The notes under the pieces: generated by a model
Told to the model about the DNA's origin: nothing
The model's input: only the letters and a program-made list of their open reading frames with translations
Databases searched by the model: none
In this document: one piece after another, positions 21,030 to 64,000 of the stretch
Position numbering within the stretch: position 1 is the first letter of the stretch
How the letters are laid out: each line of letters begins with the position of its first letter
Assembly: GCA_039545335.1 (NCBI GenBank)
Contig: BCIN01000001.1
Location: 2,483,136 to 2,547,135 of the forward strand
Origin: Kondoa subrosea
Lineage: Eukaryota
Direction: 5' to 3'
DNA length: 64,000 nt
Program-made: the position numbers and the translations under genes

Positions 21030-22662
21030 CCAATCTCTTCATTCAAGTGCTTTCGACAGGACAGCGCAGTGACTACATGCGAGCGCAGCATTATGTTCCG
21101 CTTAGAGAAGCGATGCACATTCTGCATAGGCGCTCAGGGCCGTTTCCGGGCATAATTGTCGCTTCAGCTCCATTTTGGCTGCTTGCTCTANTCTGCGTCG
21201 AGACAGCCATTGCGATACATAACGACGTGTCGAATGAGTACAGACAACTATCTCAAGCCATGTACATCTTTTGCAATCCAGGTCAAGCACAGAACATCAA
21301 AACTTGAAAATGCAGGTGGAAAGCTGATCTCTCCCTAGAGGGAGGCTTTTGGCATATGATGAAGCGAGGGAAGCAATGGAGCAGGTACAGATCTCTCCAT
21401 TAGACATCGACAACAAGCGAGAACGGCGTTCAAAGGCAAGGTCGCTTCCATGCACCACCTCGTATTGACTTTTACCTTCAAAGGTCTGATCATCATTACG
21501 CGTCATTGCATTCAGCGTTTCTTCTCAAGTGATCCTCCATCAAGTCATTCCTGAAATTGTCGAGTTCGAAGCCATTCTTTACTTCTCGTTTGTGCGTCTC
21601 GATTCTTCTGCTGCGCTCTATCGGTGCTGCCGCTATGTTGTCTATCGCTCTCTCCGTCTCTTTTACCTCTACGTGCCATCTTTGATGAGATTTGCTTTGA
21701 TTTCGATTCCCACTCGCGAATCCGACTGTTGGTCAAATTGACTTGCAATCAGTTGTAAGCTCAAAGACTCCTGTCAAGCCATTCATGTAGCTGCTATAAC
21801 AGTTGGAATATTCTGTCTCCTTCCTCTTCTTCATTATCAACTGTTTCCATCGAGTCGAGCGAGCACTAGCATATCAAAACCTTTTACCTGCTATACAACA
21901 ATCATCATGCCGCTCTTCTCCTTCTTCAATCTTTACAAAGATGGACCAGTTCGATCTACTTCAAAGCGCAGCAGCAGCACTCCTGCCAAGTCTGCTCGCA
22001 GCGGCATTCGCAAGAATGAAGCTCACCTTTGCTTGTCGCAATGGTCAGCATTCGGCACAACCTACATCCCTGATGTCGACGCAGAGCAGGAGCGAACTCT
22101 CTCGTCGCGCATTCAAGCTGCTGCCTCTCGCTTCGCAAAGCAACAACACGCTCAGAACGTTCTTCAACGCTCTCGTGAAAAGCTCGCACGATCAGTCTAT
22201 ATTCCTGCTTGTCAGGAAGAATGCGATCGCCGCATCGTTCCAACTCCGGAACTCATCACACCTTTGGCTCATCGCAAGCAATTCACACTCAAGGCTCAAT
22301 CTTCAGCATGCACCTGTTCTTCTCTTCTTTCTCCCTCCTCACTCTCTCTTACCACTTGTTGGTCAGACGAGGAAGAAGATGAAGACATGGACTGCTCAGA
22401 ATTGGCTTCAAATTGGGGTCTCACGCCTCAACAGCTCGCTCAACATGGCCTTTCAATAAATCAACTTCTGTGCAAGGCTTGTCAAGAAGAGGAAGAAGGC
22501 TTCATTCATCTTCCTCGACTGCCGATGCCTCAAAGTCGATTGGCCAAGGTTGATCAGCGTGCTCAATTGTCTCAATTGTTTCCCGCTGAATACGGCGCCA
22601 AGCAAGTGGAGTCAAACGCTTTCCGCATCTATGCAGCTTGCCAGCGATATCCACTCAAATAG
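21030..22662 (+). repeat. Inverted duplication, copy A (~1.63 kb)
   Basis: Reverse complement of 44122-45757; runs from ccaatctcttcattcaagt to the stop codon of the 251-aa ORF. Confidence 0.95.
21907..22662 (+). CDS. Hypothetical 251-aa protein, paralog A
   Basis: Intronless ORF whose frame and length are conserved in the second copy (19 aa differences by hand count, no indels). Confidence 0.7.
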   Translation: MPLFSFFNLYKDGPVRSTSKRSSSTPAKSARSGIRKNEAHLCLSQWSAFGTTYIPDVDAEQERTLSSRIQAAASRFAKQQHAQNVLQRSREKLARSVYIPACQEECDRRIVPTPELITPLAHRKQFTLKAQSSACTCSSLLSPSSLSLTTCWSDEEEDEDMDCSELASNWGLTPQQLAQHGLSINQLLCKACQEEEEGFIHLPRLPMPQSRLAKVDQRAQLSQLFPAEYGAKQVESNAFRIYAACQRYPLK

Positions 22663-27506: not shown

Positions 27507-30500
27507 ATGTCGCTATTAAAGCTTCCACCAGAATTGATTGACGATATCGTTCAATGGGTTGATAAAATCGCTTCAGAAGAGTCCTTGCGCCAGAATTTAC
27601 TTGATGATCCTGCTGACGGGCATGAGCACGGCAATGAAGAGCCTATAATGGAAGGATTGGATGGAGTAAGTCTGCTCGTTCAGCAGTGAAGAGGTCAAAT
27701 GCTGATTAATTCAAACGCAGCCTGATATCAATGGTCTTTTAGGCGGATTATTAGGTCAGATGTTTGGCGGAGGAGGAGGAGGAGGAGGAGATAATCATCT
27801 GCATGGCAATGCTCATGGAGGACCTCAACGTCCAGCTCAAAGAAATCGACCTGCAAACAATCGACCGGCTGTCAATGTTCAAGCAGTTCGCGTAGACGTT
27901 GGAGGAATACCAGCCAATCCTGCTGCACCTCGTCCTAATCAAGCCAATCAAGGCAACAACAACAATAATAACAACAATCCATTTGCATTCTTTGGAGTTC
28001 CAGCAAATGCGGGAAATGGGAATAACGCAAATCAAGCCAACGTTGCAATGCCACAGCCGGCTCAGCCTCAATTCGATGTCAATGCTTTTGCAGCCAATCT
28101 ACGTGCTGCTATCCCACGTTTGAACCCGGCCAACGCGAATACTAATGCCAATCCACAGAATGCCAATCCACCAGCAGCAACAAACGCCAACCAAGCTCCT
28201 GCACCACCTCCAGCTAACCGACCGCAAGCTAATGCTGCAAATGTAAATGGGAATGCCACCCAAGACAATGGTGGTTTCTTTGGCATGTTTCAACGTAATG
28301 TCGGAAGAGCGCAAAACATTATAGGTCAGAACGGCAACAATCCTTTCGCTGGAATGTTTCAACAACCTGCTCCTGCTCAAAATAGACCGCAAGTTCCTCA
28401 ACAGGTACCTGCTGTACCACCACTTGCACCCCATCCTATGAATCTGACGGATGACGGAAACAACATGGATTTGGATGATATGCCTCCTTTGGAACATGTG
28501 GATTCAAGTGATGGTGAAGAGTTGGGAGATGCAACTGCTGCGACTGCTGCTAGTCCAGGAAGAGCGGAATCTGGAGAAAGGAATCAGCAGCAAGGACGAG
28601 AAACAGTCGATAACTCTGATATGCCTGCTCTGACGGAAGTTTCGGATTCAGATGCAGACGATGATGATTGTAAGCCTTTGGATATGGAAGCGGTGTGCGC
28701 TGCTCACGCATTCGGATACTTTGCAGACGATGATGAAGATGAGGATGATGAGGATGGATCGTCAGAGAATTGGGAAACGGAAGATGAATCGGATGGTGCG
28801 GCTGAAGAATTGCGATTGAAGGAAGAAAGAGAAGCTGAAGAAGAAGCCGCTCGTACCAAAGCGTCTTTATGGAGAGAAGACTACCATGTACCTGAAGAGA
28901 CTTTCTCCTACCCTGAAGGTTTACCACGAGAAGTCGCTTTACCTTTGATGCTGGTCTCGAAACCTTTCCTTCACGCTGCTCGCAAAATTGTTTATGGTCA
29001 ACAAATGATTCATATAGACTCACCCTATCATCTTTCCCTACTGGTCAGGACTCTGGAAGAAAAGCAAGTGTCAGCTTTCGATGAAGAGGCGGAAGATGTA
29101 GAAATGGCAATGATTGGGTCAGCCATGCCTGATCATTCAGTCGGGACAATGATCAAGGGACTGGATCTTCACATCGGTAAGAAACTTTGCCATTGCGTAC
29201 GACGGATTGTTAGCTCATGCAATATCCTAGCATGTGGGCCACAAGCCGCCAGTCTGGGTCGAGGCGCAATGGGTCTCATTGTCAGAGCTTTGAAACGTAA
29301 GTCATTGCTCCGTTCAAAGATCTGAAGCTAATGTTGGAGCTGTAGAGTGTCGAAGACTGAAATCACTCAAGCTTCGAGCTAATGCGCTCAATTCGGTTTG
29401 GGAACCTTTGAGAGCAGCTCTCTCCGATCTGTCAGAATTGGAAGACATCAGTATGCGATCTGGAAAGGATCCCAAATACCCGCTAGTGCTATCAACTGAT
29501 CGAGTTGCGTCTTTGGCGAAAAGCTGGCCGAATTTACAAAGTTTGGACTTGTGCAGTCAGTACTCAGTGCTCTGATGTCGCATGACACTAACAGGTAGGA
29601 CAGGGCTCCAGCCTGCTGCTGCGGCTGGTTCTGTCTTCAACTTTGTCGAACCACTGGCTTGTCACTTGACCAGTGTCTCGCTTGTTCATCCTAAATGCAA
29701 AGCTTCGGAAATCGAAGCACTTCTGGCTGGCGTAAGTTTAAAAGCTGTTCATGATGGGCTGGCCTGATCAATGTCGTTAGGCGGTCGGGCATCTTGAGGT
29801 TTTCCGCTTATCGCATCCTTCAAGCGCTCTCACCCGTGGCGACTTGGCTTCTATGCTCAGCAAACACACTGACACTCTCCTCTCGCTCGAAATATCAATC
29901 ACTGCCGAATGGCATTCACGAGCTCGTGACTTACCACCTTCCTCCTCGCCCGAATCATCTGCATGGTTTCTTAATACCTTCATTTCGAAGTTCTCAAAGC
30001 TAGCTAGTCTGAATATGAGTGGACCGCTTGGCAATTCTGCACTGGTCAACTATTTGCCTGCATCGCTGGAAGTATTGATTTTCGGTCACTGTCCAGCTTT
30101 CGAGCCTCAGAAGTAAGAATTGTTGCATTCTCCTTTCTAGGCTGACAATGAATGTTCAGAGTCGCCAAATTACTCAATCTACCTACCAAGAATGGTAAAC
30201 TCAGAATACCAAAGCTTCGATGCGTTACTGTTGTTCACGATGATCTGCATTGGAGTCAAACGCATCGAGCTGCTCTTACTTCGGCTTTGGCTGTCAGAGG
30301 TGCTTGTTTCCATCAAACATCAATGAATGGCATGATGGGAATGGGTGGACCCTTGTTCGTCTTGTTCGCTCTGTCTTACATTCGTTATGCTGACTTGAGA
30401 ATAGCGAGCTCGATATGAACATGGCTGGCGGTGCTATTCCTGTGAACATGGGAGCAATGTTTGGCGTGAGTTATGAGCTGTCCAAGTTGTAAAAGACAAC

Positions 30501-36926: not shown

Positions 36927-38033
36927 ATGCAATGCTTCAAGCGCTTGACCCGGAACCCATCAATATCAGCCTGTCGTAGTTTCACGAGCTTCCCTTCATT
37001 TGCGAAAGACCCTCAGATTTTGTTCGAGGATGCGAAAACAATTTGCATTCATAAACCTGCTGGCGTGGCTATTCAAGGACTGGCAAACAGCGCTGCTCAC
37101 TTAGCTTGGCTCGATCTTCTCTCTCGCGCGTCTTTCTGCCTTGCTTGTCTATGTTCCGGCTCATAAAGTATGCAGAGCTAAAGTCTTGTGCTTCTTGCGT
37201 CGCGCTATTTCCCGTTCATCGCCTTGATACTGTGCTTCATTTGCTCCAAGGCTTTCAAAAACCCTGCCTGATCAAAACGTACAGGGTGTTTCTGGGCCAC
37301 TCCTGCTTGCGAAATCAAAAGCCCAAGCTAGAGTTTTGTCGACGCAATTCAATTCGCAGAGTATCGTCAAGCAGTATCATGCTATTGTCTATCATGAAGC
37401 AGAGCCTACGACACCAAAAGGCCGACTGGAACATTGGATCAAACAGACATCGGGAGGTGTTGTGTCCAGCCAAAGTTTGCTGCCAGCATCCCTTCAGCTT
37501 AAGCTGAGCGCCCATAAACAGTCTCTGTCGATGTCTCGTATAAGCGAGCCATTACCGACTGGAACATCAAGGCGTCCGAGGTAGTTTCATGACTTGCTCG
37601 AGAATTAATTTACTGATCTTTCTCCCAGAAAGGCTACAGTCTGGTCGAGCTCTCTCCTCGAACCGGACGTAAACATCAGCTTCGACTTGCATGCAGAGAT
37701 TTGCAGAGTATGGATTACCCTTACTGCAATCTTTTCAAGTCATTAATGCTTTACTATCGCAGTGCCTATTCTCTTTGATTACAAGTATGCTGGTCGATGC
37801 GAGCGAATCTTCCGCTATCTGGAACAGCAGGGAGCTTTAAGGATTGACGGAAGAATCATGTTGCATTGTTCAGCGATTTCATTTTGGGTTCGTGCTCTTT
37901 CTCTACAAGACTGGGAGCTAACTTGAAGTGAAAGCAATGGGACAAGACTGGAAAACGCTATTCCATCCATATTCAAGATCCTTTCCCACCTGACTTCACC
38001 GCTCAGCTCAACAACATGTCATTGACAAGGTAA
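36927..38033 (+). CDS. RluA-family pseudouridine synthase, probably mitochondrial (Pus5-like)
   Basis: HKPAGVAIQG, catalytic FPVHRLD, PRTGRKHQLRLAC, MLHC; basic presequence-like N-terminus. Confidence 0.8.
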
Positions 38034-38720
38034 TTACGTCAACAAGCAGTTTCGCTGCAAATTCAGGACTGGCTCGACTGTCCAGCTTTAATACAGTTCA
38101 GTGACGGGGTCTTCGGTAATTCGAGCCATCAGAAATTCGGCCATTTTCAAGCCTCCCGACTCATGCTGAGAAAGGAAGTTTATCCTCGGTCTACCATTTT
38201 TATGGCTCTGTCTGCACCAAGAACGCGCCTTTCCGACCATCGCAAGTGTACAGAATGCCAGCAATCTGCATAAAGCTCGGAGGAATGTCGGTCTTCGATT
38301 ATTTGGCGGAATTTCGTCAGCAAATTGGTTCGCGTTGAAAAGATCAAATCGTCCTGCTAGCTGCTTGTCGCCTCGGTATTCAGCACAGATACGCGTCAAA
38401 GAATTCTTGCCATACAAGTTTGGCGCATTCCATACGCGGCGAGCAAGATGCCTGTGCCTGCCATCTTTGTTGCCTTTTTCGACGAAAGTTCAGCTTGCTT
38501 TAACTACTAGCCATCGAATAAGCCTCTTTGTTAAATTCCGTCGCAAACATGTCCTGCCAGTTGCGGCTCTTGCAGTCTTCTTCTCAATCCATTCCCAAAA
38601 CCGCTCATTCAATATCCATCGCATCCGGATTGTGCCTCAGTTCTTGCAACATCATAGCACACATACAGTAAGCTGCTTTGTCATTGATGGCAGAGCCAAG
38701 CTAAATGTAGCTACGCAGCA

Positions 38721-40115
38721 ATGGATCAATCGCTTTATGATGCTCTCAACGAGTTCACAAATCCTCAATTCGTTGCTATTCAAGGAGTGAATCCACTACT
38801 CGAGAACACTCAATATGATGACATCTACAATTATCCTCAAGATAAGGCCTCGGACTACCACTTCGGTCATATGGCCAACCATTCAATGCAACCAATGCAA
38901 CGCCCAGCAGGCCCAGCTCCGCTAATCTTACCTTCTCCTGGCAGCTCTCCTGTGCCATCTCTTGCATCCACGCCTTCGGTCTCAACTTCTTCTTCTGCTC
39001 CTTCATCCGCCGAAGAAGTTCCGCTGCTGTCACCAACTTATTCTTCCACCTCAAGCTACAGCAGTCCTACCCGATCTTATCCAGGCCCAAGCCCTTCTTA
39101 TAATCCAAGCTTCTTTGCTGCAATGCAAGATGAGTATTTGGCTCAAGAACATTATCAACCACGGATGCAACGCAAAGCATCCATGCCTTCGTTCCACTCT
39201 CAGCATTTGGCTGTTGCCCACCAGGCTGGACTTCGTCGAGCTTCCTCCGCATTGTCTATGCATCACCCATCCCCTTCCAGATCATCGCATCGCTCTCAAG
39301 TTGCTCTTGCGCCTCATTATCACAATGTGCATCAAGCTTCGCACTTTTCTCGCCATCACACACAGCCCCTTCCTGTTTCCTCTAGACAGCAATTGCTTCC
39401 AGCCTCGCCTTTGCAATTTCGCTCTCAATCATACCTTTCTCCATTGCCATCACCCGGTCTCAGCTCTTCCATGTCTCACATGAACATTGCAGGAGTCAGC
39501 CTTGGCTTGGACGATCTAGAATTACTGGAGCAACTCAGTCCTGGAGCATCTCCGCCGACTGCTTCACCCATGCCTATGCCCATGTCAGCTCCCGCTTGGC
39601 AGGTCTCTTTCAACTTGCCCGAAGGTTCATCATCAAGCTCAAACAACTACACCTATCAGCCAAGTCAGCCTTTCTATGGCGACAGCAGTTTCAATCCTTT
39701 TACGCCGGCTCCTCATCAAACCTATCCTGGCGTTCAAGGCGATTCTGGACTTCGATCGGTGCCGGTCTTACAGGAAGATGCCATCCCAGACTACTTTTCT
39801 AGCCCTCTTGCTCGAAGACGTCGTGGTTCTTCGATTGATTCGGTGGTTAACCAGGCTCTACCTCAGAATGGAGCTCCGTTCGCATACACGCACTTATCTC
39901 AAGCTCCTCCACCTCGCAAGATCAAAGCACTCAAAAAGCCATCAGCTAGTCGAAGCTTCTCCGCACCTCCACCACCGCCTTCAGCTCAATTCGTCAACTT
40001 TACCTCTGCGGATTCGAGGAAGATTTTGACTGGCGTTGCACCTAGTGGTTCGAGCAAAAGGAAGAGAGAAGAAGCGCAGGAGAAGGCAGGGAAAAGAAGA
40101 GTCGCATCAGCTTGA
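38721..40115 (+). CDS. S/P-rich protein with C-terminal WetA/ESC1-type motif; putative transcription regulator
   Basis: QFVNFTSADSRKILTGVAPSGSSKRKR resembles the conserved WetA C-terminal motif FVNFT..D..K(I/L)LTGVAPSGSSK. Confidence 0.7.
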   Translation: MDQSLYDALNEFTNPQFVAIQGVNPLLENTQYDDIYNYPQDKASDYHFGHMANHSMQPMQRPAGPAPLILPSPGSSPVPSLASTPSVSTSSSAPSSAEEVPLLSPTYSSTSSYSSPTRSYPGPSPSYNPSFFAAMQDEYLAQEHYQPRMQRKASMPSFHSQHLAVAHQAGLRRASSALSMHHPSPSRSSHRSQVALAPHYHNVHQASHFSRHHTQPLPVSSRQQLLPASPLQFRSQSYLSPLPSPGLSSSMSHMNIAGVSLGLDDLELLEQLSPGASPPTASPMPMPMSAPAWQVSFNLPEGSSSSSNNYTYQPSQPFYGDSSFNPFTPAPHQTYPGVQGDSGLRSVPVLQEDAIPDYFSSPLARRRRGSSIDSVVNQALPQNGAPFAYTHLSQAPPPRKIKALKKPSASRSFSAPPPPPSAQFVNFTSADSRKILTGVAPSGSSKRKREEAQEKAGKRRVASA

Positions 40116-52563: not shown

Positions 52564-55500
52564 TCAACCCTCGAAGATATCGGCTTCTATAGATTCTATT
52601 ATACAATCCCAATCTATCACTTGACAAGCGTAGATACTTTCGTAGCTGCTTAAGCTGATACGGGAGAAGAAAGGTTCCAAAGGCGTCAGGGAATCGAGTT
52701 TCGTAGCTAGCCGGACTTGAGACAGAAGAGGTTGACGTAATGAGTTGGTCGATGTTACTGTAGAGGAAGGTTGAATTCGAGGAGTATCCTTCGCATGCAA
52801 GTTGAGAAAAATGACAGCGACGACATTGCAGCAAGGACTCACCATAATCTTACTTGTCGGCTGTTGGTGTAGGATCTCATTTAGTCTGTCAACAATAGCT
52901 TGTGGTGACCAATTTTCGGGTGGATATATCGCATCGACCGTGTCAGTTACAAACATCCATTGATGACTGTCGTTTGATGAGCTGAGGCTTTGTTATACGA
53001 ATAAGGAGAGACTTACATCTGAAAGTCTTCTGTCTGAAGAACTAAGAGTAGATCAAGGAATTTGCAAGCCGAGAGTATAAGTTGAAGGTATTCCGATGAA
53101 GTTTGATTAAGATCGTCGAGAAGACTCTCGAACAATCGCAACTGCGCAGATTTTATTAGAAACAAGATATGTCAGCATTGCAGTACCACCTCACCAGTTC
53201 AGTCAATATGATTGGCCAGAAACTGCTCAAATGCTGCTCGCCTATACGACACAGCAGGACCCTCAAGCAGAGATAGACCTGTTCCCAGTGTCAGTAGAAT
53301 ACATACGGCACTAAATAGGAGGACGTACTTCACTATGAACAATGTCTCCAACGCTTGCTCGCAATATTTCGACTACTTTTTCTTGTATAGCCGGCAGCTG
53401 AACCAAGTAGGCGTTCTTTTCGCCTGCCAGTATCGCGTACGACAGCCTTCTCAAGCTGAGAGCGCGACTGAGCATTTCCAGCTCGCGATTTGTGAAGATA
53501 TTTGCGGATGAGGCGGTCGAGACTTTCTCTGACCACAAAGTTGCCTTTAGTACAGATAACAAATCAACAGCGAGATGTCTTACGAATAAGATCTGGAAAG
53601 CGTTCTTTGTCCGATGTCATGAGCGCGTGGACGATAGGTTTCCAATTGCAACTTATTGCTGGAGAGCTATCGAAGAAGCGATTGTCTTGGAAAACGTCAG
53701 TGACCGTAGCTCTCCAGGCCCGGATAGCTGCAGGATGCTTCGTCATTTCTTGAAGTAGTTCAAGTATATCTTCATCGACAGCAAATGTCTTTAAACGAGT
53801 CTTGAAGGCAGGATTGATACAGTAATAGACGATGTTGCCACACAAAAGGTTGACTTTGTCAGCTTCCAATAAGAAGCGCTTCAGATTGGGCAAGAAACAT
53901 TTGCACAGGAATTGGTTCAGCTGTGAACAGGTCAGCCCATAGCATGCATCACCGAAAGTTTCACCCTACCTCTCGTACAGCAGAAGTAGCAGATGTATCT
54001 GCGCCGGCCGGCGGTGCAGTTTGCGCTGACTTCTCATCCACTATGCCGTTTGTATTGCCAGCAATTGCTAGATTGGCAGAAGGCATTTTACGCAGACCTA
54101 TGCCCCCACGATTTGCCAGCGGTACTGTGACATCACCCAGTTTTGTGATAGTGTCCTAGGAAATGTCAGAAAAGTTCCATAGAAGGGGCAATCTCACACA
54201 TACTTGTAAATCCCTGCGCATTCGACGGTCTTCCAGTGCCGAAGTCTGAGAAACCTTGATGCACAAGGTAGTGAAGCATCTACAATACTGATAAGAGCGG
54301 TCAGGCTGTAGTGAACTGAGACCTTACTTCCAAGTAGGTAATAAGGCGAAGCGATGTGACATTGCCTGATTGAGCATATCTTTGGCAAAGGCCAGAGCTG
54401 CGGGCCAGGCTTGCACAGCGCCTGGACCTTCGAGCGATTCCAAATAGCTATTCAGGAAGTTGAACAGCGATGTGTATGCTCTGTAGGAGCTGATTAGTCA
54501 GAGCTCGGAAATTCACACAAACATACAAGTCGGGGTTCGTGACGACAACTCGATGCTTTGTATCAGGTGGTGGTAGTCTTGCTCTCAGTAGCTCGCATGT
54601 ATTGAGCACTACAGTATGATGATTGGGAACCAAATGTCCGACGATGGTGAATAAACGTGTTTGTTGCGTTGACTCGTTCTGCTATCATAAGCAATCAAAT
54701 CTGCTCTTAAGTCATATTATAGACTTACCAAAGATCTATCACTTGCATTGTCGTGATATAGGATGATGTCCTCCAGCGATTCTGATGGACACGCTTTATG
54801 CAGCCTTTCAAGGCATTTACGGGTGCGGCTGCTGACACGCTCTAAAACTTGCGTTCTTGTGGAGCTGAGATCTTCTTGTGGGATCTGAAGACTGGTCGAG
54901 ACATCCCATGCGCGGAGTAACACATGGACAACTCCCTCGAGATGTTGGACTACTTGCGATTTAGTCTGTGTCGGATTGAGTCTAGATTACTGAGGTACGG
55001 CAGACAATCCTACCTTGGGCATTTCCGACGTCTTGATGCCGTCCGAAGCTCCCAGCACTCCAGTAACATACCCAAGAAACCCGCTTGTCTCCGTTGCTGT
55101 ATTATCTCCACCTATCGAATCGAGGTGAGGCGAGTTGATATTCTTGGACTCTTCTACTACCAAAAGCATCAAGCGTTCCAAAGCACCAACTAGCGCGACA
55201 AAGTCTGCATCTGTGGTATTGCTTGCTGCTTTCTTGCCTTTGACTGCTAAGTCATAGGTAGCTTGAATTTCGTCGATATAACGGGAGATACACTTGACGA
55301 GGCAATCGATGAGAGGCATCAAAATGGAACCACTTGCGTCTTTCAGTTGAGGAATTGACATGAACAGAAAATCGACCCAATAGTGTATTGTAGCACTGTC
55401 ATGGCCTTTGGTAATCCCCTCTTGCAATACCAAGGGAAGAAGGTCATCTTGCGGAGAAGAGTTGTCCAACTTGTCATGCCTGCTGTCTGATGATATTCGA

Positions 55501-58500
55501 TTGATGCGAGTGCGTTTCCGCTGAAAAGCTGAAAGACCTTGGAAAGTAGCATGGAGAGCATGCAGGAGCTTGTTTTGGAGGTCCAGCTGTTCGCGGTCGA
55601 TACATATGAGCAATCGCGACAACAGGCAAACTTGAATCTTGTACAGGAGAGACTGATCAATCTCTCCTCGTTGTATGACGACTTGCAGTATATCCGTTGC
55701 TGCCAAATGAATCTGTAGGTTTAGTCCTTCCATGACAGAACTCAGCTCTTCCGTCGGATCAGATGACAGAAAGTTGACCATGACTAGACAAGTTGCGTCT
55801 AGATAGGTAGTTGATGACATGGCGTTCGCCTCCGCCAACTGTTTTAGAGCAGAATAAGCCGTAGATGAAAGTTGAGCGCCTTTTGCCGTCCTCTGAAAGC
55901 CCGCTCCTCGAGTCAAGAAAAGATTGTGAAGGGTGGAAAGAGCGTAGTGACATTGGGCTTGATCAAAGTTAAATCGATATTCGTTCATTGACAGAGTTTG
56001 GCCGCATAGACTTATTTGCCGTGGACTTCTTCTGATGCGAGTATGTAATAACATCACCAGAACGGGATCCAGAAGCCTAGGATAGATCATCAATAGTGCG
56101 CAACGGCTATAAAGAAGAATTCACCGAAGATAGCTTTTGAAGCTACAGCGCATCCATGCTTCAGCAGCTCTGCGTGTAGTGAGGCTATCGCTTCGTACCC
56201 CGTCTAGAACGAGGAACAGAGGTGCGGTCAGATATTGGGAGGGAAGCGACGAATCCTCTACTTCTCACTGTCAGTCTCTTCTTTGACGCAAGGAAGCTCA
56301 TGCACGCACCTGACGTCCGCCAAAGGTTTCCAAATGCATCGTGGCCGTCAGATCGTGTCTTCTCGTCAGATGAGGTCATCTGTTCGCAAATAATGGCTTC
56401 AAGGTGATTGACCTGAGTGACAGAATGAACCAGCCATATCAAGCGGGTGGTTTCGACAGAGAATGGTAGACGATCAGCAACAAGGAAGGAAAGCAATCTA
56501 TGTACGATGGTTCTGACAAGCGATCGCGAGTCGATGTCAAGGACAGGTTGAATGGGTGACTGATGCAAGGCTACTATGGCTTGAACAATCTGTGAGACAG
56601 TTTCGAAATCTTCTGATGACTGATCTAGGTTTGCAAACGTAGATAAGACAGCGATGACCCATTCTTGCGGCTGCCAGTCGATTTGAGTTTCTTTTTCGAG
56701 AGCTGCGGTGATCAGCGAGATGGCATCGCAAAGAGAACTGAGGAGGCCCATTGAAGATTTTTCAGTATCAAGGGATAGTGCTAGTGAGCTTGTAAGGCGA
56801 AGAAGCACCGCTAAGCCTTGGGTAGAAAGAGTGATCGAGAGTGTTTCGGCGGGTAACGAAGCTTGTTTGATGTCCGTCGACTGATAGAAGGTAGTCGCGA
56901 TATCCAAGGATGCTCCCGTAGAGTAAGAAGGCGTCACTTGAACGGCCCTGGATGCAGTATAAAAGTCGACAGGTATATCGTCTAGCAAATTGTGAAGAAG
57001 TTGACATGCAACCTTGTGCTTCAGTGGGAAGTCGCCGGCAGAACTTATGGAGATCTGAAGTAGTTGATGAGCTATAGAAACGAATGATCAAACAAGTCTT
57101 TACCTCCAACAGGTCGAGAAGCGAATATGCGAAGATTGGCAGATGAACGCGCAGAATCTCTTCTTCGTGTAGCTTGAACGTTTTTAGGACGAAGATGACC
57201 AATTCGATGTTCTGAGTCCGTATGTCTGAGTTCAATCCGTTGACAAACAAGATCAAAGCCATACCTCTGATTGATCCGCTGCATCTTGCATATCTTTCTT
57301 GACGGCATCAAAAAGCATCTTCCAGGTCAGATATGGGTCCAGCCCTTCCCAGAGCACGCCAGCCGTAACTCGCAATTCTTCTTTCCCTGTTTCACCCTCC
57401 AAGGCTTTGCGTAATGCGCGAAAGGTGTCCAAAACCAAAGCTTCAGTGAGAGGGTAACCAATTTCCCATTTATCTAATAAGGCGACAAATATTCTGAAGG
57501 GTCTTTGCTCGCTCGCCTCCATTTCTTGCTTCAGCGCAACGCAAACGATATCCAATCCGTTCGCTCTGAGGTAATCGACCGCATTCTCTTGATCGTTGCC
57601 TAAAAGCCAGTGATGTAATCTTCTACTTAGACTGAGGTCTCTTTTTAGTACCACTCCGAGCAGAGAGCGCACGAGCAGAATCTGATCATCTTTTCTTACT
57701 TCTTGCTTAAATCCTTCTCCATCCATTTGAAGCAGATTCAATAACAGATCCAATATTCCACGTTGAACCAGAACTCTTCCATCATCTATCGCAGCTGCGA
57801 ATCCTCTAACCATCAAACCCACGTCTTGTCCCACAAGAGGACTTAATGCTTCTTCTTTCCCTAAAGCAGGTAATCTTTTGCTCAAATAGTTCAAAGCTGC
57901 CACTCGAGAATTAGGGCTAGTGAGTAAGATGAGCCAAAGGTGTTGAAAGAAGAAAGCAGGATCCACAACTCCTGAGATCGAGTCGAGCAAAGATGAACAT
58001 TTGTCAAAGAATTCGGAAGTCTCTTCATCCACGCCTGGTAGAAGCGCTAAGATGAAAGCTTTTGTTACTGGTCGTAGAGCAGATGAAAGTGGAAGGTAGA
58101 ATTTCGAATAAATGCCCAAGACGATGGGCTACAAAAGAGAATTCAGCGCAAGACGAATGGACGCTTATAGCAATTAACTCACGCGAACAGATGTAGCTGC
58201 GAACTGGAAGAAGGGAAAAAGACCTGAAGACCATGCTGCCAGATCATACCGCAAGTTATCAGGCTGCAGTCTTCGCATCAGAACTGACGACACTGTAGAA
58301 GATTGCTGACATACACCTATAGTATTGAGTATATGGACATAGACGTCCAAAGCGCGTTGATGTACGCCAGTAGGTAGAGCTGGATTTAAGCATTGCGCCA
58401 ATCTCTTCGCTACAGTGAGTTTGTGAGGAATGATCTGAAACTGCGGATATGCTTGTAGTGTCTGTATTATTACACACAGATTGAATTCCAGCGATAGACA

Positions 58501-58771
58501 TGAAACAGAGTGAATTGACCTTGAGCAGTCTCGCCAAGAAAGTGATGAAGTCCGCCCATTCAGCTACAGATTCAAACAGTGCCAGGGACCTTTCGACTGA
58601 AGCTTGATATTTGCGATACTTTGGATCCGCCAGCAGAACTGTTTCAACCACAACATTCATGCATTTCGTTTCCTGGTACTCATGCCAGCTGCAAGGCTCA
58701 CCCTTCTCTTGTCTAGCATAGGGCGTCACAGCAGCCTGTCTGATACTCCCAGTCGAGCCACTCCTGATCAT
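52564..58771 (-). CDS. DOP1: Dopey/Dop1 trafficking protein
   Basis: DPKYRKYQASVERSLALFE..EWADFI, AQCLNPALPTGVHQRALDVY, LLPGVDEE, LVQRGILDLL, RDLSLSRRLHHWLLG, LRRLSYAILAGEKN. Confidence 0.93.
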
Positions 58772-58909
58772 TCAAGGCTGCGAGAGTCGAGTCGAATTGG
58801 TTGAAGAGCAACGTCGAGCAACCGCATCTAATCCGTACAATCCCCATGTACTCTTTCCTCGAGACGCGCTTTACCACCACCCATACGGTATGTCAATCCC
58901 CGATATCAA

Positions 58910-59035
58910 ACTAAAGTTTTAACCGGAGGTCATCCAAAAAATGCATATCGTTCAAAACCACATAGCCCGAAGGATCACACGTGACCTGGAATGCCAGTTA
59001 AGGACAACTAAAACGACTTATGTCTTCAAGAGGTT
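58910..59035 (-). ncRNA. Candidate omegaRNA scaffold downstream of the Fanzor-like gene
   Basis: Nested stems found by eye, including a cUUCGg tetraloop, 3' of the Fanzor-like stop codon; boundaries uncertain. Confidence 0.4.
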
Positions 59036-59219
59036 GTTGAGCAATGGGGTGTTGGAGAGTAGATGAAACAATCGAGCCAACACTTGAGTACAGAAAGAGC
59101 AAACAATAAGCATCTGTCAAATACTGATGTCAGAGCAGCATATTGAGAGCCTTTGTTTTGGTCTCACATTGACTCATAACCCAGAATGCATGCTTGACTT
59201 GCCAAAGTACCAAAACGAT

Positions 59220-62200
59220 TCAAGCTCGAGAACGTTTATCGAGGTGATTGAGATAGTACGGATTGGCTGGAGTTCCTCCTCTCTGATCAACCCAATTCCC
59301 TGCTGCTCTAACATCTCTTTCTTTTTGCCTGATGTAAGGCAAAGAAGCAGGATAAGCGTTATGAGCAGGTAATTGTCCAGACCTCATGAAAGCAATGCCA
59401 TTGTCTCTTATATTACTTGCTGCTGCGCCATCTCTAGGTCTGAGAGATCTCAATTGATTGGTCTGAGGAGGAGGAACATGACGAGCGTATTGACCAGGTG
59501 GTAGTTGCCGAGGAGGAGTAGCTTGAGAGGTAATGTAATTGATAGCGCCATTGATGTTTACGTTCGGCGGTTGAGTTGGTGGACAGATAGTGCAACCAAC
59601 TAATCTCGTTGCTTCCTTATCCTCGGTTTCGTTATGAGCAGAAGTAGGGCGAAGTGATCCATCAGGTATAATGCAATGCTTGCGCAGTTTGTGATTGCCT
59701 GGACCAGGAGGTCGAGCATATTTGGTCCTAATATTGGCCAATCAGGAACAATGTACTTGGTGCAAATATGCGACTCACTTATGTCCTACCGGGCAAACGT
59801 AAACTTTGCTCTTGATCTTGACGCCTTTATGAGGTGTGAGACCAGAGAGTAGTTCGGAAGGATCAGCGCCAGGTAAAGGAGGAGGAAGGCCATGATCCAA
59901 AGAAGCAGAAGAAGTGCAGCATGTTTGAGTCGTATCATACTTTGGTACGGTAACAACGCTATATCGACCTTGCACAGCGCTGCCTCGAGCAAATCCCTTA
60001 AAGAGATGCGTGAGAAAGCGTTCGGATATGAAAAGCCAGCATATATACCTTTTGAGCAGCGGATCTTTTCCCTCTCGCAGCTGAACCATAACCCTCTTCC
60101 CAAAACAGTACAGCATCTTTCCAGGGCTCCTTCGGTTCTCTTTCTACAGTAGGAATCATCTTTCTCTGCTTCCGCTTTGCTTTCTTTTTCGCACGCCATC
60201 TTCTTCGCTTCCGATTTTCCCTGAATACCAGAGACTGTCCTTCTTCTAGGAAATGGTAGTGAGAGAGGTTGAAAGCATTGTAACGATAAGCTTTGGCATG
60301 AGTATGAGCTTTAGCCCCAACACGGTCGAAATGACGGGATGACGCTTTCAAGATAGGATTGGTGAAACGACTCATAGGTCGCCAATGATCGCAATGCAGA
60401 GAGAAGTAATCTGAAAGACCTTCCAGGCCTCTTTGGTAGAGCTTGGCTACTCCATCAGCCAGTTGTTGTTGGCGTTCATCATAAGTAAAGACTTCAGGCA
60501 ATGAGCCATTAGCTATCCAAGTTCGGACATTCTTGGCTCGAGCTGCAGCGATCATCCTCTCATCTCTTGCTGACAAACACTGTTCTCCCATGAATTTACC
60601 AGAAATCGCTCGCCTATGACTCTTGAATTCCTTTACTGCCATCTCATATTCATAATTATAAGTTCCTTGACTAATCTGACCAGTGTTCAGCTCTTGGTCT
60701 AATCGAATCAAAGTTGCGGAAAGGTCTTGTCTAGCTTCTCCCAGATTCTTGTCAACAGATTGAGTCAGAAATGTTTGACCTGGATCAACACCAGCAGCTT
60801 TTTGGGCACCAGGAGCTGGTGTGTCAAGGAATTGTTGAGCTGGCATACGAGGATTATTGTGAAGAGTAGTAAGGAAGCCTTCATGGTTGGTATCAGGGAA
60901 GACTTGATTCGGCAGAGGCATATTTTGACCTATGTTCCGTCTTTCGCTGAGTTCTGCGTAAGTAGCAACTCGATTCGCTATAGCTAGATGTGGCTTTCGA
61001 CGAAGTTGTTCTGCAGTAGGCTTATATTCGAAACAAATTTGCATCTCTTTGTCGCCATCTGATTTGAAATAGAGCTTAGTGAGAGGCAACTGCTCTTTAC
61101 ACTTGTTGAAATAGAACTTTCTTCCCTCTTCATCGCATTGCAAAGCCCAAACATTAGGAAAAGCAGTTACTTTGCCAGTGTCTTCATCTTGATGTTTGAA
61201 GAAATGAGCCATATACGCGATTTGGTCCTCTTCTGCTGCTCTAAGTGTTGGCATACGAAGGACATTCCGCTGTCCAATATTATTGAGCTCAGTCGCGCGA
61301 ATTGAATCAACCAACTTACTTGTGTCAAGATTTGAAGGTTCTCCAACTTGATGGCAGGCAAAGAATGGTATTTGTGTTGTACAGCAGGTACAATGATACC
61401 CCTTAGTATTTTGTAATTGACGAGCAGAATTTCTCTTTTCATTTCGGTCTTGCGCGGCGCCATCTTGAGGTGAGAGAAAGGTGGTTCGACTTCGCCTTCA
61501 TCGTTTGTAGCTAACACAACGGCACGGGTAGACATATAGACCATTATAAGAGCAGCTGGTTCATAGAGTACATCGTTGTTTTCAATTATGGTTGACCAGT
61601 CTGCTGCATATCGCTTGAGTTGAAATCTTGCATTGCTTACTGATTCAGGGAGAGGATTAGGAGCGCCTGCTATCGCTTTGAGGTGTTTGTTGCCCAAGGT
61701 TCTTGCAGGGTCCAAAGCCCAGACTAGTAAAGAATATAGTCGCATAAGGGAGTTTACAATTATCTGGCGATCCGCTTGACTGTATTGGAAGAGAGAATTT
61801 CCGTTCTCGTCGAAGAAGGCATGATGATCTGGCCCCCAATTGTACAAGACCATTTGACCTTGAACGTGAAAATTGGCCACGTAAAGTGGTTGAAAATAGA
61901 TGTGAATGATTATTGCCAGTTCCGCCATCTCAACTTCTGGAAATTCAAGAGCCGCTAGCTCTAATTGTATAAGCTTGAGAAGGCTAGAGTCGAACTTGTG
62001 GGTGTAAAAGCCTTTGACTTCGCCCATCAACATAGGCGCTTGACTTTGCTTGAGCCATGTCCATGATTGGTCTCTAGAAGGATGATGCAGTTCGGAAAGA
62101 TCAATTTTGTCGAAAGGAGCGTTTGGAGGTGCAAGATCAGGAAAAGCAAAGTTAGCAGGCTTCTGTGTAGTGAGCCCAGGTTGTATGCAGTGTAGGTAAG

Positions 62201-62666
62201 AAACATCAAGGTGATTGAGCTGAGGGCTATTGGGTTGTACGTTATCTTGTACTGTTTTCAAAACAGCTTCCCCAAAAGGTGCGTCGAAGTGAATTGACGG
62301 CCTAACACCGGTAGAAATTGGTAAAGGCTCGTCTCCAACTGGAATGTGAAGGAAAGGCACCACTCCAGGCGGATTTGGAGTCAAAGTAATTTCAGTAGTA
62401 GCGAAATTCTGATAAGGCAGTAAAGGTGCGTTTGCTGTTGCGACGGCAAGATTGTGATTTATAAGAAAAGCATAGGCACCTCTTCTAAGATGAGCTTGAA
62501 CCAGATATAGCGCCACGTAATGCCAGTGAGTCCAGGTGCCCGCGGTTGCTTTTACTTCGGCTTTAAAGCGCAAGACACCTTTACCGCCAAGCATACTTTC
62601 GGAAAGAGAGCTTCGAGGCGTTCCATGCCTCCTCGTTTTTCGTTTCAAAGTTCTACTTGCAGGCAT
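59220..62666 (-). CDS. Fanzor1/TnpB-like RuvC-domain protein, 4 coding exons, ~1097 aa
   Basis: Exons 62666-61320, 61269-60049, 59996-59779 and 59727-59220 total 3294 nt in frame. Motifs FKSDG..MQICF (WED TDG-like), AAGVDPG (RuvC-I), VLFWEEG..RGKRS, VVTVPKYDTTQTCC, Cys-rich zinc-finger-like region, RPRDGAAASNI (RuvC-III). Confidence 0.8.
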
Positions 62667-64000
62667 AGTGGGTCTATCAGCAGGATCAGCAAAGAGGCAA
62701 CGAGCATCTCGTTCACTCACAGTTTTCAGAGGACAGTGCGGACAGATAGACAACGAAACAAGTAGATGACAAAATTTAGCTCACTGTACAACCTATCTCA
62801 GCTATACTGAGCAGACTGCGGTCCAGCTCAACTTACAAGGTGCCCAAAATGAGCTGTTGCCCGACGCACAAATTCGTCAGACTGGTCTCTTCAATAAGCA
62901 GGTACAACTCACAAATGTGAAGATGATGATACAACGTTGATTCTCGATGGTATATTGCCAAAGTATGAGGTCTGTGCAAGGAAAATAAGGAAAATTGGGT
63001 TGCATAATTCGGGAAGCATGACTCACGCTTGATGCTAGAGAATACGGAGTACCAACGTGCGAACAAAGAATTGTATTTCAGATACAAACGAAACGTTTGA
63101 AATAGTCAAGTCAAACTTGAGACGAAATTTGCGAAAGAAGATAAAAAGAAGAAGCACAAAGATACAGCGAGAGTCAGACCAGCTTCAAGTATGCTCGCGA
63201 AGAGAGCTAGAGCATTTGTCCGTCGTGGTAGAGATAGACAGACAGACACAATTTTTCTCAGATATAGCGAGACAGGTCCGGTTGAATGCGACGCGGCAGA
63301 ACAAGTGCACACGTACAAATGCAGTGTATCGCACAGTCCTTGTAAAGCGCTAATGATAAAAGTCTACACCGGAAGAAGGTCAAAGCTTTGCTCTTTCGAA
63401 AATCACAAAGGCAAAAAATGGAAAGGCAAGTCAATCCGTACCCAGACTTGAAGCGATTCTGAATAGGCCATTCTGACGGCCTCGATACGATCAACACAGC
63501 TGTGGTCTTCGTTTAGCCAGAGCTTAACGAGGGAAACGTATAGACATATCTCCCAGGCTTCCTTTTGGTTTTGGCAATAAGATAGAGCTCAGAACAGCAG
63601 AACAGAAGGCATGAACATTATCAAAGGATACCAGTCAAAGCGAGGAGGAGGATATCAGTCAAAGCGAAATAACAGATCCAAGCTTGTTCGAACGAATCTT
63701 TCTTCGCGTCTTTGTCCGCCCAAGCGGAAGTTTGTCAGCAAGAAGGTCTTTCAGCCTCAAGTACTGTGATCGAAAGGAGCTTTTATCGTGTTGCGTCGCA
63801 ATCAATAGGTTCGTTGCTTAAAAGAAGGCTCCTGTGCGAAATTCAAACGACTTTTGTGCTGAAACGATTCAGTCAGAAGCTCAGACTTGTGATTTGAGTA
63901 CTCTCGGGCACCTATAAACACCTCTGACACAATCCTAGCCTAGTGGGTAATTCTCCTTCTTACTTTGAACTCGAAGCTGAAATCAAACAGCAGAGAAAGA

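Follow-up and report, generated by a model that had tools for sequence, protein, structure and literature searches.

To our knowledge, Fanzors are the only eukaryotic RNA-guided DNA nucleases, and we know of no established natural role for them; those described so far ride on transposons. The TnpBs of the same superfamily are intronless proteins of 350-450 amino acids (aa) that are found in insertion sequence (IS) elements with a 3' omega RNA. Known Fanzors measure 400-700 aa (PMC10432273), with most Fanzor1 proteins (Fz1) at 600-700 aa (PMC11423790), and PpFz1 has a RuvC insertion of ~100 aa, the FRI domain, that binds cyclophilin (PMC10432273, PMC11423790). The catalytic residues of SpuFz1 are D383, E541, and D606 (PMC10432273). 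Fanzors and some TnpBs have Gly or Pro in place of the canonical RuvC-II Glu and a compensating Glu ~45 residues downstream (PMC10530073), and the family signature was given by Bao and Jurka (2013) as D-X(125,275)-[TS][TS]-X-X-[C4 zinc finger]-X(5,50)-RD (PMC3627910). We investigated a gene on the minus strand of a 64,000-nucleotide (nt) stretch of Kondoa subrosea DNA (assembly GCA_039545335.1, contig BCIN01000001.1, positions 2,483,136 to 2,547,135; hereafter the window, with positions counted from its first letter). An original prediction, made from the letters alone, had taken this gene for a hidden, spliced, Fanzor-like nuclease gene. Kinship with the TnpB/Fanzor superfamily is probable from the sequence comparisons reported below, and we are inclined to prefer a resident, possibly domesticated, divergent gene of Fanzor origin to an active passenger of a transposon.

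The proposed joining of four minus-strand exons through three introns was borne out, with coordinates, lengths, and splice signals as claimed (Table 1). The exons joined by these coordinates make 3294 nt, corresponding to 1097 codons and a stop, with no internal stops, and they lie in stop-to-stop open frames of 537 codons (exon 1) and 499 codons (exon 2). A codon table trained on eight Pfam-supported open reading frames (ORFs) of the window (2420 codons) scored the model frame best for all four exons. The exon structure can be compared with that of L018, a Joint Genome Institute (JGI) metagenome contig found by back-translating an invariant peptide into a DNA search pattern. L018 contains the last 324 codons of exon 2, a 54-nt gap, a 218-nt exon 3, a 53-nt gap, and, up to the end of the contig, 74 codons of exon 4. 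L018 is 48% identical to the window gene, its joined frame is stop-free, and introns 2 and 3 interrupt the two genes at the same codon and in the same phase. Exon 3 is 218 nt long in both, with 44 of 72 residues identical (61%) and with nucleotide differences of 19, 19, and 40 at codon positions 1, 2, and 3, respectively; the first 73 residues of exon 4 also align. Because position and phase are the same, exon 3 is of equal length, the differences are in excess at third positions, and codon usage is in frame, the comparison with L018 indicates a spliced fungal gene in which introns 2 and 3 are well supported. Furthermore, the ORFs of the homologue clusters P0005, P0006, P0008, and P0009 end a few codons past the end of exon 2, where a Val codon (GTN) follows each time, as expected of a conserved GT donor; P0007 is ambiguous. 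Intron 1 is a candidate from its canonical splice signals and its size, together with the residues VLRMP right after its acceptor, which are kept in P0005 upstream of the first usable Met of that homologue. The frame of exon 1 runs open for 50 codons beyond the intron 1 donor.

A further intron had been placed in the 5'-untranslated region (5'-UTR). The sequence is present (gtgagt..gatag, 62676-62720, minus strand, upstream of the ATG), and its role as an intron is that of a candidate; it holds an out-of-frame ATG, so that splicing it out would remove an upstream start codon.

Table 1. Features of the Fanzor-like gene and its downstream neighbour, with positions in the window (aa, amino acids; nt, nucleotides).
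Feature	Position	Strand	Remarks
Whole coding region, spliced gene	59220..62666	minus	4 exons and 3 introns; 1097 aa and stop
Exon 1	61320..62666	minus	449 aa N-terminal extension, without recognisable family
Basic stretch RTLKRKTRRH at start of exon 1	62625-62654	minus	from translation
Intron 1	61270..61319	minus	50 nt, GTAAGT..ACAG; from splice signals
Exon 2	60049..61269	minus	407 aa; beta-rich segment, RuvC-I motif, conserved helical insertion of ~230 aa, basic helix, RuvC-II strand
RuvC-I-like GVDPG (residues 609-613)	60778..60792	minus	putative catalytic Asp611, codon 60786-60784
Conserved basic stretch RKRRRWRAKKKAKRKQRK (residues 802-819)	60160..60213	minus	just before RuvC-II strand
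RuvC-II-like strand end FWEEG (residues 838-842; WEEG 839-842)	60091..60105	minus	Glu840 at canonical RuvC-II position
Intron 2	59997..60048	minus	52 nt, GTATAT..TAAG; 54-nt GT..AG counterpart in L018
Exon 3	59779..59996	minus	72 codons and 2 nt; [TS][TS]xxC strand, first zinc knuckle, proline-rich insertion, CPVGH
PKYDTTQTCC (residues 874-883)	59916..59945	minus	counterpart of TnpB/Fanzor E-x-x-[TS][TS]-x-x-C-x-x-C-G
Proline-rich insertion GLPPPLPGADPSELLSGLTPH (residues 892-912)	59829..59891	minus	inside zinc-finger region
CPVGH (Cys924..His928)	59781..59795	minus	candidate second zinc knuckle; CPDGH in L018
Intron 3	59728..59778	minus	51 nt, GTGAGT..TTAG, phase 2; 53-nt GTGAGT..ATAG counterpart in L018
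Exon 4	59220..59727	minus	168 codons and stop; further Cys, ~50-aa linker, RuvC-III motif, C-terminal tail
CTIC (Cys974-x-x-Cys977)	59583..59594	minus	only intact CxxC knuckle; CSIC in L018
RuvC-III-like RDGAAASNI (residues 1027-1035)	59409..59435	minus	putative catalytic Asp1028, codon 59432-59430
DOP1 gene	54987..58771	minus	Pfam Dopey_N, TPR_DOP1_M, TPR_DOP1

The motifs GVDPG, WEEG, PKYDTTQTCC, and RDGAAASNI, together with both Asp codons, were found where the original prediction had placed them and in the order it had given for the spliced protein; its WED assignment and its reading of basic stretches as NLS-like are tentative. The signature of Bao and Jurka fits this order as D611-X266-T878 T879-QT-C882 ... 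C974xxC977-X49-R1027 D1028: 266 residues separate the Asp from [TS][TS]-X-X-Cys, close to the upper limit of 275, and 49 separate C977 from R1027 D1028, where 5-50 are permitted past the zinc finger. Expressed as regular expressions, both written after the sequence had been seen, the signature was matched by 2 of 20,000 shuffles in its loose form and by none of 20,000 in its strict form. The six frames of the window amount to 127,996 residues, among which G.DPG and RD..A[AS].NI occur once each, both in this gene.

We compared the protein with blocks that were defined independently of it. The comparison set consisted of giant-virus TnpB/Fanzor2-like genes and 72 phage/virus TnpB ORFs, and the TnpB profile was built from 73 sequences. 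The six most conserved 12-column blocks of the 73 viral TnpBs, chosen without this gene, were placed in order on the joined protein by dynamic programming. The protein scored 40.9 bits, a value that none of 1000 shuffles reached (mean 18.7, standard deviation (sd) 5.6, maximum 40.4; z = 4.0), and blocks 2, 4, 5, and 6 landed on GVDPG, KYDTTQTCC, VCPVGH, and RDGAAASNI (residues 608, 875, 917, and 1025, respectively). Taken singly, the RuvC-III block scored 14.2 bits at RDGAAASNI, which 3 of 2000 shuffles reached; PKYDTTQTCC and CPVGH were the best sites in the protein for their blocks (the latter for 'W.C..CG'), reached by 72 and 108 of 2000 shuffles; and GVDPG was the best site for the RuvC-I block, which alone is not significant (761 of 2000). 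Among the controls, a giant-virus protein outside the profile gave z = 16.6, 13 further ORFs of the window all stayed within z = -1.6 to +1.5, and the truncated L018 product, which is without RuvC-III, gave z = 1.3.

Profile comparison returned a weak but significant likeness to TnpB. With hhalign, the joined family alignment matched the 73-TnpB profile colinearly (score 31.8, P = 0.0036), pairing RuvC-I, the [TS][TS]xxC strand, VCPVGH with W.C..CG, and RuvC-III. No column shuffle reached this score (0 of 60; mean 14.0, sd 2.3, maximum 22.9), and the reversed alignment scored 20.8. Against a profile of 12 rearranged-type TnpBs the match had P = 0.021, with AVLFWEEG paired to IfvGnV, VPKYDTTQTCC to VnE.yTsQtCS.CG, CTIC to C..Cg, and RDGAAASNI to DRD.NAAkNI. 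Language-model neighbours in the ESM Atlas, which are leads and not tests, point the same way for two separate exons. For exon 2 (score 0.95, 173 of 256 features, recognition 2008, below the 2300 mark), 21 of 30 feature matches fell in PF26935/DUF8286 clusters of Nucleocytoviricota and Mucoromycota, and another set carried PF07282; for exon 4 (recognition 2311), the neighbours were Mucoromycota, Zoopagomycota, and giant-virus clusters, with seven matches to PF18516 (RuvC_1) and one to PF07282. We found no paper naming DUF8286 or PF26935 in the literature searched.

The gene belongs, as judged from the homologues recovered, to a very rare family that is seen as unannotated fragments from few assemblies. 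When 1.84 billion representative proteins were scanned in full by HMMER for relatives of exon 2, only four were returned, and a profile word search with exon 2 added one more, P0009. The resulting five clusters hold 14 sequences, each cluster on one or two contigs and none informatively named, and every sequence is a fragment of exon 2 called as an ORF. Word searches of longer proteins with exon 2, and word searches with exon 4, gave no relatives; viral contigs searched with a first family alignment (A1) and with exon 1, and metagenome contigs searched with a second (A2), gave no related loci; and a DNA pattern of the L018-type motif had no match in viral contigs. For exon 1, Pfam, NCBIfam, PHROGs, the PDB, and viral contigs yielded nothing or noise, the large protein libraries not having been searched with it.

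A number of results weigh against the kinship. In hmmsearch with a hidden Markov model (HMM) of the 73 TnpBs, the joined protein did not stand out from 3000 shuffles. The hhalign match carries a probability of 9%, and 60 shuffles in motif-keeping 12-column blocks averaged 24.4 and reached 36.5, exceeding the real 31.8, which means that the signal lies mostly in a few short motifs. In the ordered block test the best shuffle (40.4) came close to the real score, and both signature spacings (266 and 49) are near the top of what is permitted. Aligned with hhalign to the giant-virus Fanzor2-like set, exon 2 paired over 16 columns only, in the DPG block (E = 0.055), and the single joined sequence against four giant-virus proteins gave E = 0.38. 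In the Pfam, NCBIfam, PHROGs, and PDB searches the queries were separate exon pieces, and the RuvC and zinc-finger region is split over three exons. The four pieces matched no Pfam or NCBIfam family at E <= 1; neither PF07282 (TNB / OrfB_Zn_ribbon), whose domain is split here across exons 3 and 4 with an insertion of ~90 aa, nor PF01385 (OrfB_IS605) was found in them. PHROGs returned one noise match only, and sequence and profile searches of the PDB at E <= 10 returned no Fanzor, TnpB, or Cas12 chain. The L018 pieces matched a single unrelated DUF in Pfam at E <= 10 (E = 0.048). The Pfam library searched did not include PF26935/DUF8286, the family nearest to exon 2 in the ESM Atlas.

AlphaFold2 models of exon 2 had a mean predicted local distance difference test (pLDDT) score of 43.9 from the single sequence and 47.7 from a six-sequence alignment, with the RuvC-I region below 50, which again counts against the kinship. 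A Foldseek search of the PDB with the exon 2 model gave no match at E <= 0.001, a search that the low confidence of the model makes uninformative; VIA-align matches of this low-confidence model, equally uninformative, cover only a helical hairpin at residues 160-232. An ESMFold2 complex prediction with three chains (exon 2 residues 145-407, exon 3, and exon 4) gave weak support, with a score of 0.55. Its runs scored 0.55, 0.58, and 0.34, the best of three controls 0.00, with contact agreement of at least 52% and partner pLDDT of at least 39. In calibration, 51 of 78 solved complexes and 2 of 108 mismatched pairs passed the mark, a setting that a split-chain job with the alignment unused does not resemble; passes at a score of 0.60 or below comprised only 5 of the 78 solved complexes and all 4 of the mismatches that passed (of 180).

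The original prediction's claim of Fanzor/TnpB kinship stands in part. The signature, the block test, hhalign, the ESM Atlas neighbours, and the canonical L018 motif described below are for it; the profile searches against Fanzor and TnpB families and the fold comparison by which it was to be checked did not clearly bear it out, though run on exon pieces they do not refute it either, with no match for any exon piece in Pfam, NCBIfam, PHROGs, or the PDB and no usable RuvC fold from the exon 2 models (pLDDT 44-48). The alternative that survives best is that there is no such kinship and that a lineage-specific fungal gene resembles RuvC and zinc-finger motifs by chance. The blank curated libraries and PDB sequence searches, the failure of the TnpB HMM to beat shuffles, the hhalign figures, the poor structure predictions, and the edge-of-range spacings would all follow from it, and the motifs were originally chosen by eye. 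However, blocks that were defined independently land in order on four predicted sites, a result equalled in 0 of 1000 shuffles, with the RuvC-III block reached alone by 3 of 2000; two separate exons each draw Fanzor, TnpB, or RuvC neighbours in the ESM Atlas; the L018 motif is even more canonical than that of the window copy, and Asp611 is invariant; and the blank Pfam result came from a library without PF26935 and from pieces that split the domain modelled by PF07282. We regard chance resemblance as unlikely.

The family resolves the motifs further. Asp611 is invariant in the six aligned family sequences (6 of 6). A basic run occurs in all homologues at the site of RKRRRWRAKKKAKRKQRK, where R356 of exon 2 is invariant, and may serve as a nuclear localization signal (NLS) or as a nucleic-acid-binding helix. 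Gly occupies the canonical RuvC-II position in each of the 13 homologue sequences, and Glu840 (60097-60099) is found in the window copy only. The residue following this Gly is Glu, Gln, or Ile in the family; since all three occur, it is not essential, and from the alignment it is unlikely to be catalytic. Even within one 90% cluster this residue differs among P0013, P0016, P0008, and P0015, being Glu in two and Gln in two.

At the relocated glutamate site of Fanzors the window copy has Lys875 (59940-59942), and the CxxC that follows is reduced to CC (CC-T-S-S). The counterpart in L018 reads PEYASTVRCCTACG, which is the canonical E..[ST][ST]..C..CG, with the relocated-site Glu and an intact C-C-x-x-C-G. 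The Fanzor glutamate pattern (Gly or Pro at the canonical position and a downstream Glu) accordingly fits the family apart from the window copy, which has Glu840 and Lys875: Gly is present in 13 of 13, and the relocated Glu in L018, the sole homologue clearly seen at that site. The C-terminal tail of P0007 (ILEYCTSS...) was considered as a second case of a relocated Glu and was not counted, given a possible intron read-through and a disagreeing MAFFT alignment. Candidate zinc-finger ligands in the window copy are C882 C883, C924-x3-H928, C947, and C974-x-x-C977. They extend over 96 residues and suffice for four ligands, in a stretched region with one degenerate knuckle; L018 keeps both C-C-x-x-C-G and C-x-x-C. 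The proline-rich insertion GLPPPLPGADPSELLSGLTPH shares 20 of its 21 residues with L018, the longest near-identical run of exon 3 in proteins that are otherwise ~48-61% identical. This insertion has the look of a motif that binds proteins, reminiscent of the PpFz1 insertion to which cyclophilin binds.

On the reading that we prefer, the C-terminal ~490 residues would descend from the RuvC nuclease core of TnpB/Fanzor proteins and have diverged very far from it. RuvC-I, a long helical insertion, and a RuvC-II strand would lead to a zinc-finger (TNB) region, stretched and in part degenerate, and then to RuvC-III, with an N-terminal part of ~600 residues without assigned fold in front. By analogy with the family, the protein would enter the nucleus, bind nucleic acid, and cut DNA, with Asp611, Glu840, and Asp1028 forming a D-E-D RuvC centre; its fold, catalysis, RNA guidance, and domestication are what we infer. 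The glutamate would appear to have returned to the canonical RuvC-II position, given that relatives have Gly there, that L018 has Glu at the relocated site, and that the window copy has Lys875. Several features run counter to an active nuclease: Lys at the relocated-Glu site, CC in place of CxxC, and Ala for the Asn of D.NAA. Because of these three the active site of the window copy may be dead; the alignments can be read either as a glutamate that moved back to the canonical site or as a copy losing its active site. The apparent return, moreover, depends on one homologue, L018, for the relocated site, and the homologue sequences do not extend to RuvC-III. Glu840 and Lys875 may be a compensating pair.

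The gene lies in a gene-dense housekeeping region, the window also carrying urease, a nucleotide-sugar transporter, chitin synthase, Timeless, aldehyde dehydrogenase, PSMD12/CSN4, and DOP1. The original prediction had named DOP1 as the neighbour, correctly: it lies downstream on the same strand (Dopey_N, E = 4.8e-54) and starts ~450-560 nt downstream of the stop codon of the Fanzor-like gene, the 3' flank of which is also the DOP1 promoter region. The base composition of the gene is that of its surroundings. Two open frames, 27706-29325 (+) of 539 aa and 38688-40115 (+) of 475 aa, match no Pfam family at E <= 1e-4, and the second falls in the sole 2-kb bin with strong GC skew (-0.25 at 38001-40000). 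The window has 12 N bases, ten of them clustered in 267-749 and the others at 21191 and 45596.

Host codons, host-sized introns, housekeeping neighbours, and the absence of visible transposon ends are the grounds for reading the gene as resident. Terminal repeats, copies, and a transposase, by which carriage on a transposon would be recognised, were not found within the window: there is no paralogue, fragment, or repeat of the gene in the 64 kb, and 56000-64000 contains no convincing flanking inverted repeats, the best pairs being 72-75% complementary and inside coding sequence. A canonical, still mobile Fanzor1, that is, a passenger nuclease of a DNA transposon with a 3'-encoded omega RNA that cuts DNA to aid its spread, would be served equally well by the signature, the block test, and hhalign, and fungal Fanzor1 genes are common, with introns, NLS, and RuvC insertions of ~100 aa as in PpFz1 (PMC10432273, PMC10530073, PMC11423790). 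Two observations also trouble the resident reading. The window holds only 1.3 kb of upstream DNA, so that the left end of a transposon could lie beyond 64000. As to the omega RNA, the 3' flank (58930-59300) folds no better than shuffled sequence (z = +1.2; 88 of 100 shuffles fold as well), with no structured RNA, and an Rfam scan of the window found no family; this counts against the preferred reading and also against a mobile element, for which the service of this flank as DOP1 promoter region is a further difficulty. Against mobility there are, in addition to the missing inverted repeats and second copy, the presence of each family cluster on one or two contigs only, the host-like codon usage, the length of 1097 aa against 400-700 aa in known Fanzors (PMC10432273), and intron positions that a relative with 48% identity also has, as would fit vertical inheritance over a long time. 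A mobile Fanzor1 is, on balance, improbable.

The boldest form of the resident reading is held with just as little confidence. In it the gene would belong to a domesticated, Cas12-sized Fanzor lineage, single-copy and vertically kept in few fungi, in which the Glu has moved back and GLPPPLPGADP.ELLSGLTPH recruits a host factor. If it were true, the gene would be the first case of a Fanzor taken over for a cellular role, and the family would be a natural experiment indicating that a glutamate at either site suffices. A limited literature look-up for a domesticated single-copy fungal Fanzor gave nothing relevant, and published Fanzor catalogues may list relatives.

It is very unlikely that the gene model is over-long, with exon 1 a separate gene or a lineage-specific addition and the protein running from about Met455 with ~643 aa, an ordinary Fanzor1 size: gene callers do start the homologues P0010 and P0006 inside exon 2, no exon 1 homologue was found (the large libraries having been left unsearched), most Fanzor1 proteins have 600-700 aa (PMC11423790), and the exon 1 frame stays open past its donor, but, left unspliced, the exon 1 ORF would run ~87 nt into the beginning of the second ORF on that strand, with no space between them for a promoter. 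Moreover, the GTAAGT donor of intron 1 is perfect, its acceptor is CAG, and its size (50 nt) is like that of introns 2 and 3; the VLR before Met is kept in P0005, and exon 1 codon usage is host-like in frame.

If the kinship holds, a spliced, single-copy, host-adapted relative of 1097 aa would widen the sequence space of Fanzors, of a kind that annotation pipelines miss, and the gene would be a candidate for Fanzor domestication; the apparent glutamate swap within one small family would also bear on the evolution of the rearranged RuvC site. If the kinship is not confirmed, it is an orphan fungal gene.

Compared with known systems, membership is partly supported: the sequence evidence bears it out at the level of the superfamily signature, and not through curated profiles, structure, or functional hallmarks. 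The prokaryotic and phage TnpBs (OrfB of IS200/IS605 and IS607; ISDra2 TnpB) have in common with the window protein the D..[TS][TS]xxC..Zn finger..RD signature (PMC3627910) and the ordered-block and hhalign likeness to 73 viral TnpBs, and, of its family, only the window copy resembles TnpB1 in its Glu at the canonical RuvC-II site; the 73-TnpB HMM, however, misses the window protein.

The giant-virus TnpB/Fanzor2-like proteins (L001-L017; ApmFz2-type) resemble the window protein motif by motif, with DPG in RuvC-I (GIDPGVRTF in the viral proteins, GVDPGQTF here), FYG[ND]I for FWEEG, NEA[FY]TS..CS.CG for PKYDTTQTCC, and DRD.NA[AS]KNI for RDGAAASNI, and Gly at the canonical RuvC-II position is common to them and the window family. 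Unlike the window gene, they match PF07282 (E = 1e-17 to 1e-18) and PF01385, and their RuvC-I and RuvC-II are ~80 residues apart, compared with ~230 here. Four of the viral ORFs (L001, L002, L003, and L005; 631-643 aa) carry an N-terminal extension of ~300 aa before their HTH_OrfB_IS605 match, and in a 40%-identical relative (L010, 477-2404) the extension region is split into overlapping ORFs, 477-1388 and 1376-2404.

The fungal Fanzor1 proteins, SpuFz1 of Spizellomyces punctatus and PpFz1 of Parasitella parasitica, are eukaryotic and intron-bearing with a basic N terminus, as is the window gene, and have RuvC-I, the [TS][TS]xxC zinc finger, and RD in the same order. The Gly at the canonical RuvC-II position of the family (13 of 13) and the relocated Glu of L018 are the pattern described for Fanzors (PMC10530073), and the insertions inside RuvC recall those of SpuFz1 and the FRI domain of PpFz1 (PMC10432273, PMC11423790). 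In contrast, the window protein is ~400 aa longer than known Fanzors, with RuvC-I and the glutamate site ~100 residues further apart and with ~90 residues added in the zinc-finger region. From the RuvC-I Asp to the relocated-Glu site there are ~264 residues here and 158 in SpuFz1 (D383, E541), and from that site to the RuvC-III Asp ~150 here and 65 in SpuFz1 (E541, D606). It also differs from Fanzor1 in carrying Lys where the relocated Glu is expected and Glu in the canonical position, in giving no sequence or profile match to any solved Fanzor, and in that no inverted repeats, copies, or omega-RNA structure were detected in the window.

In size the protein resembles the Cas12 effectors, its ~1100 aa falling within their range of 1000-1500 aa (PMC10432273). 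The RuvC split by large insertions is a further likeness, and exon 4 draws its seven PF18516 matches in the ESM Atlas from the Cas12-type RuvC_1. Unlike Cas12, the gene is eukaryotic, spliced, and without a CRISPR array, and it has no sequence match to any Cas12 structure; it would work, if at all, like a Fanzor.

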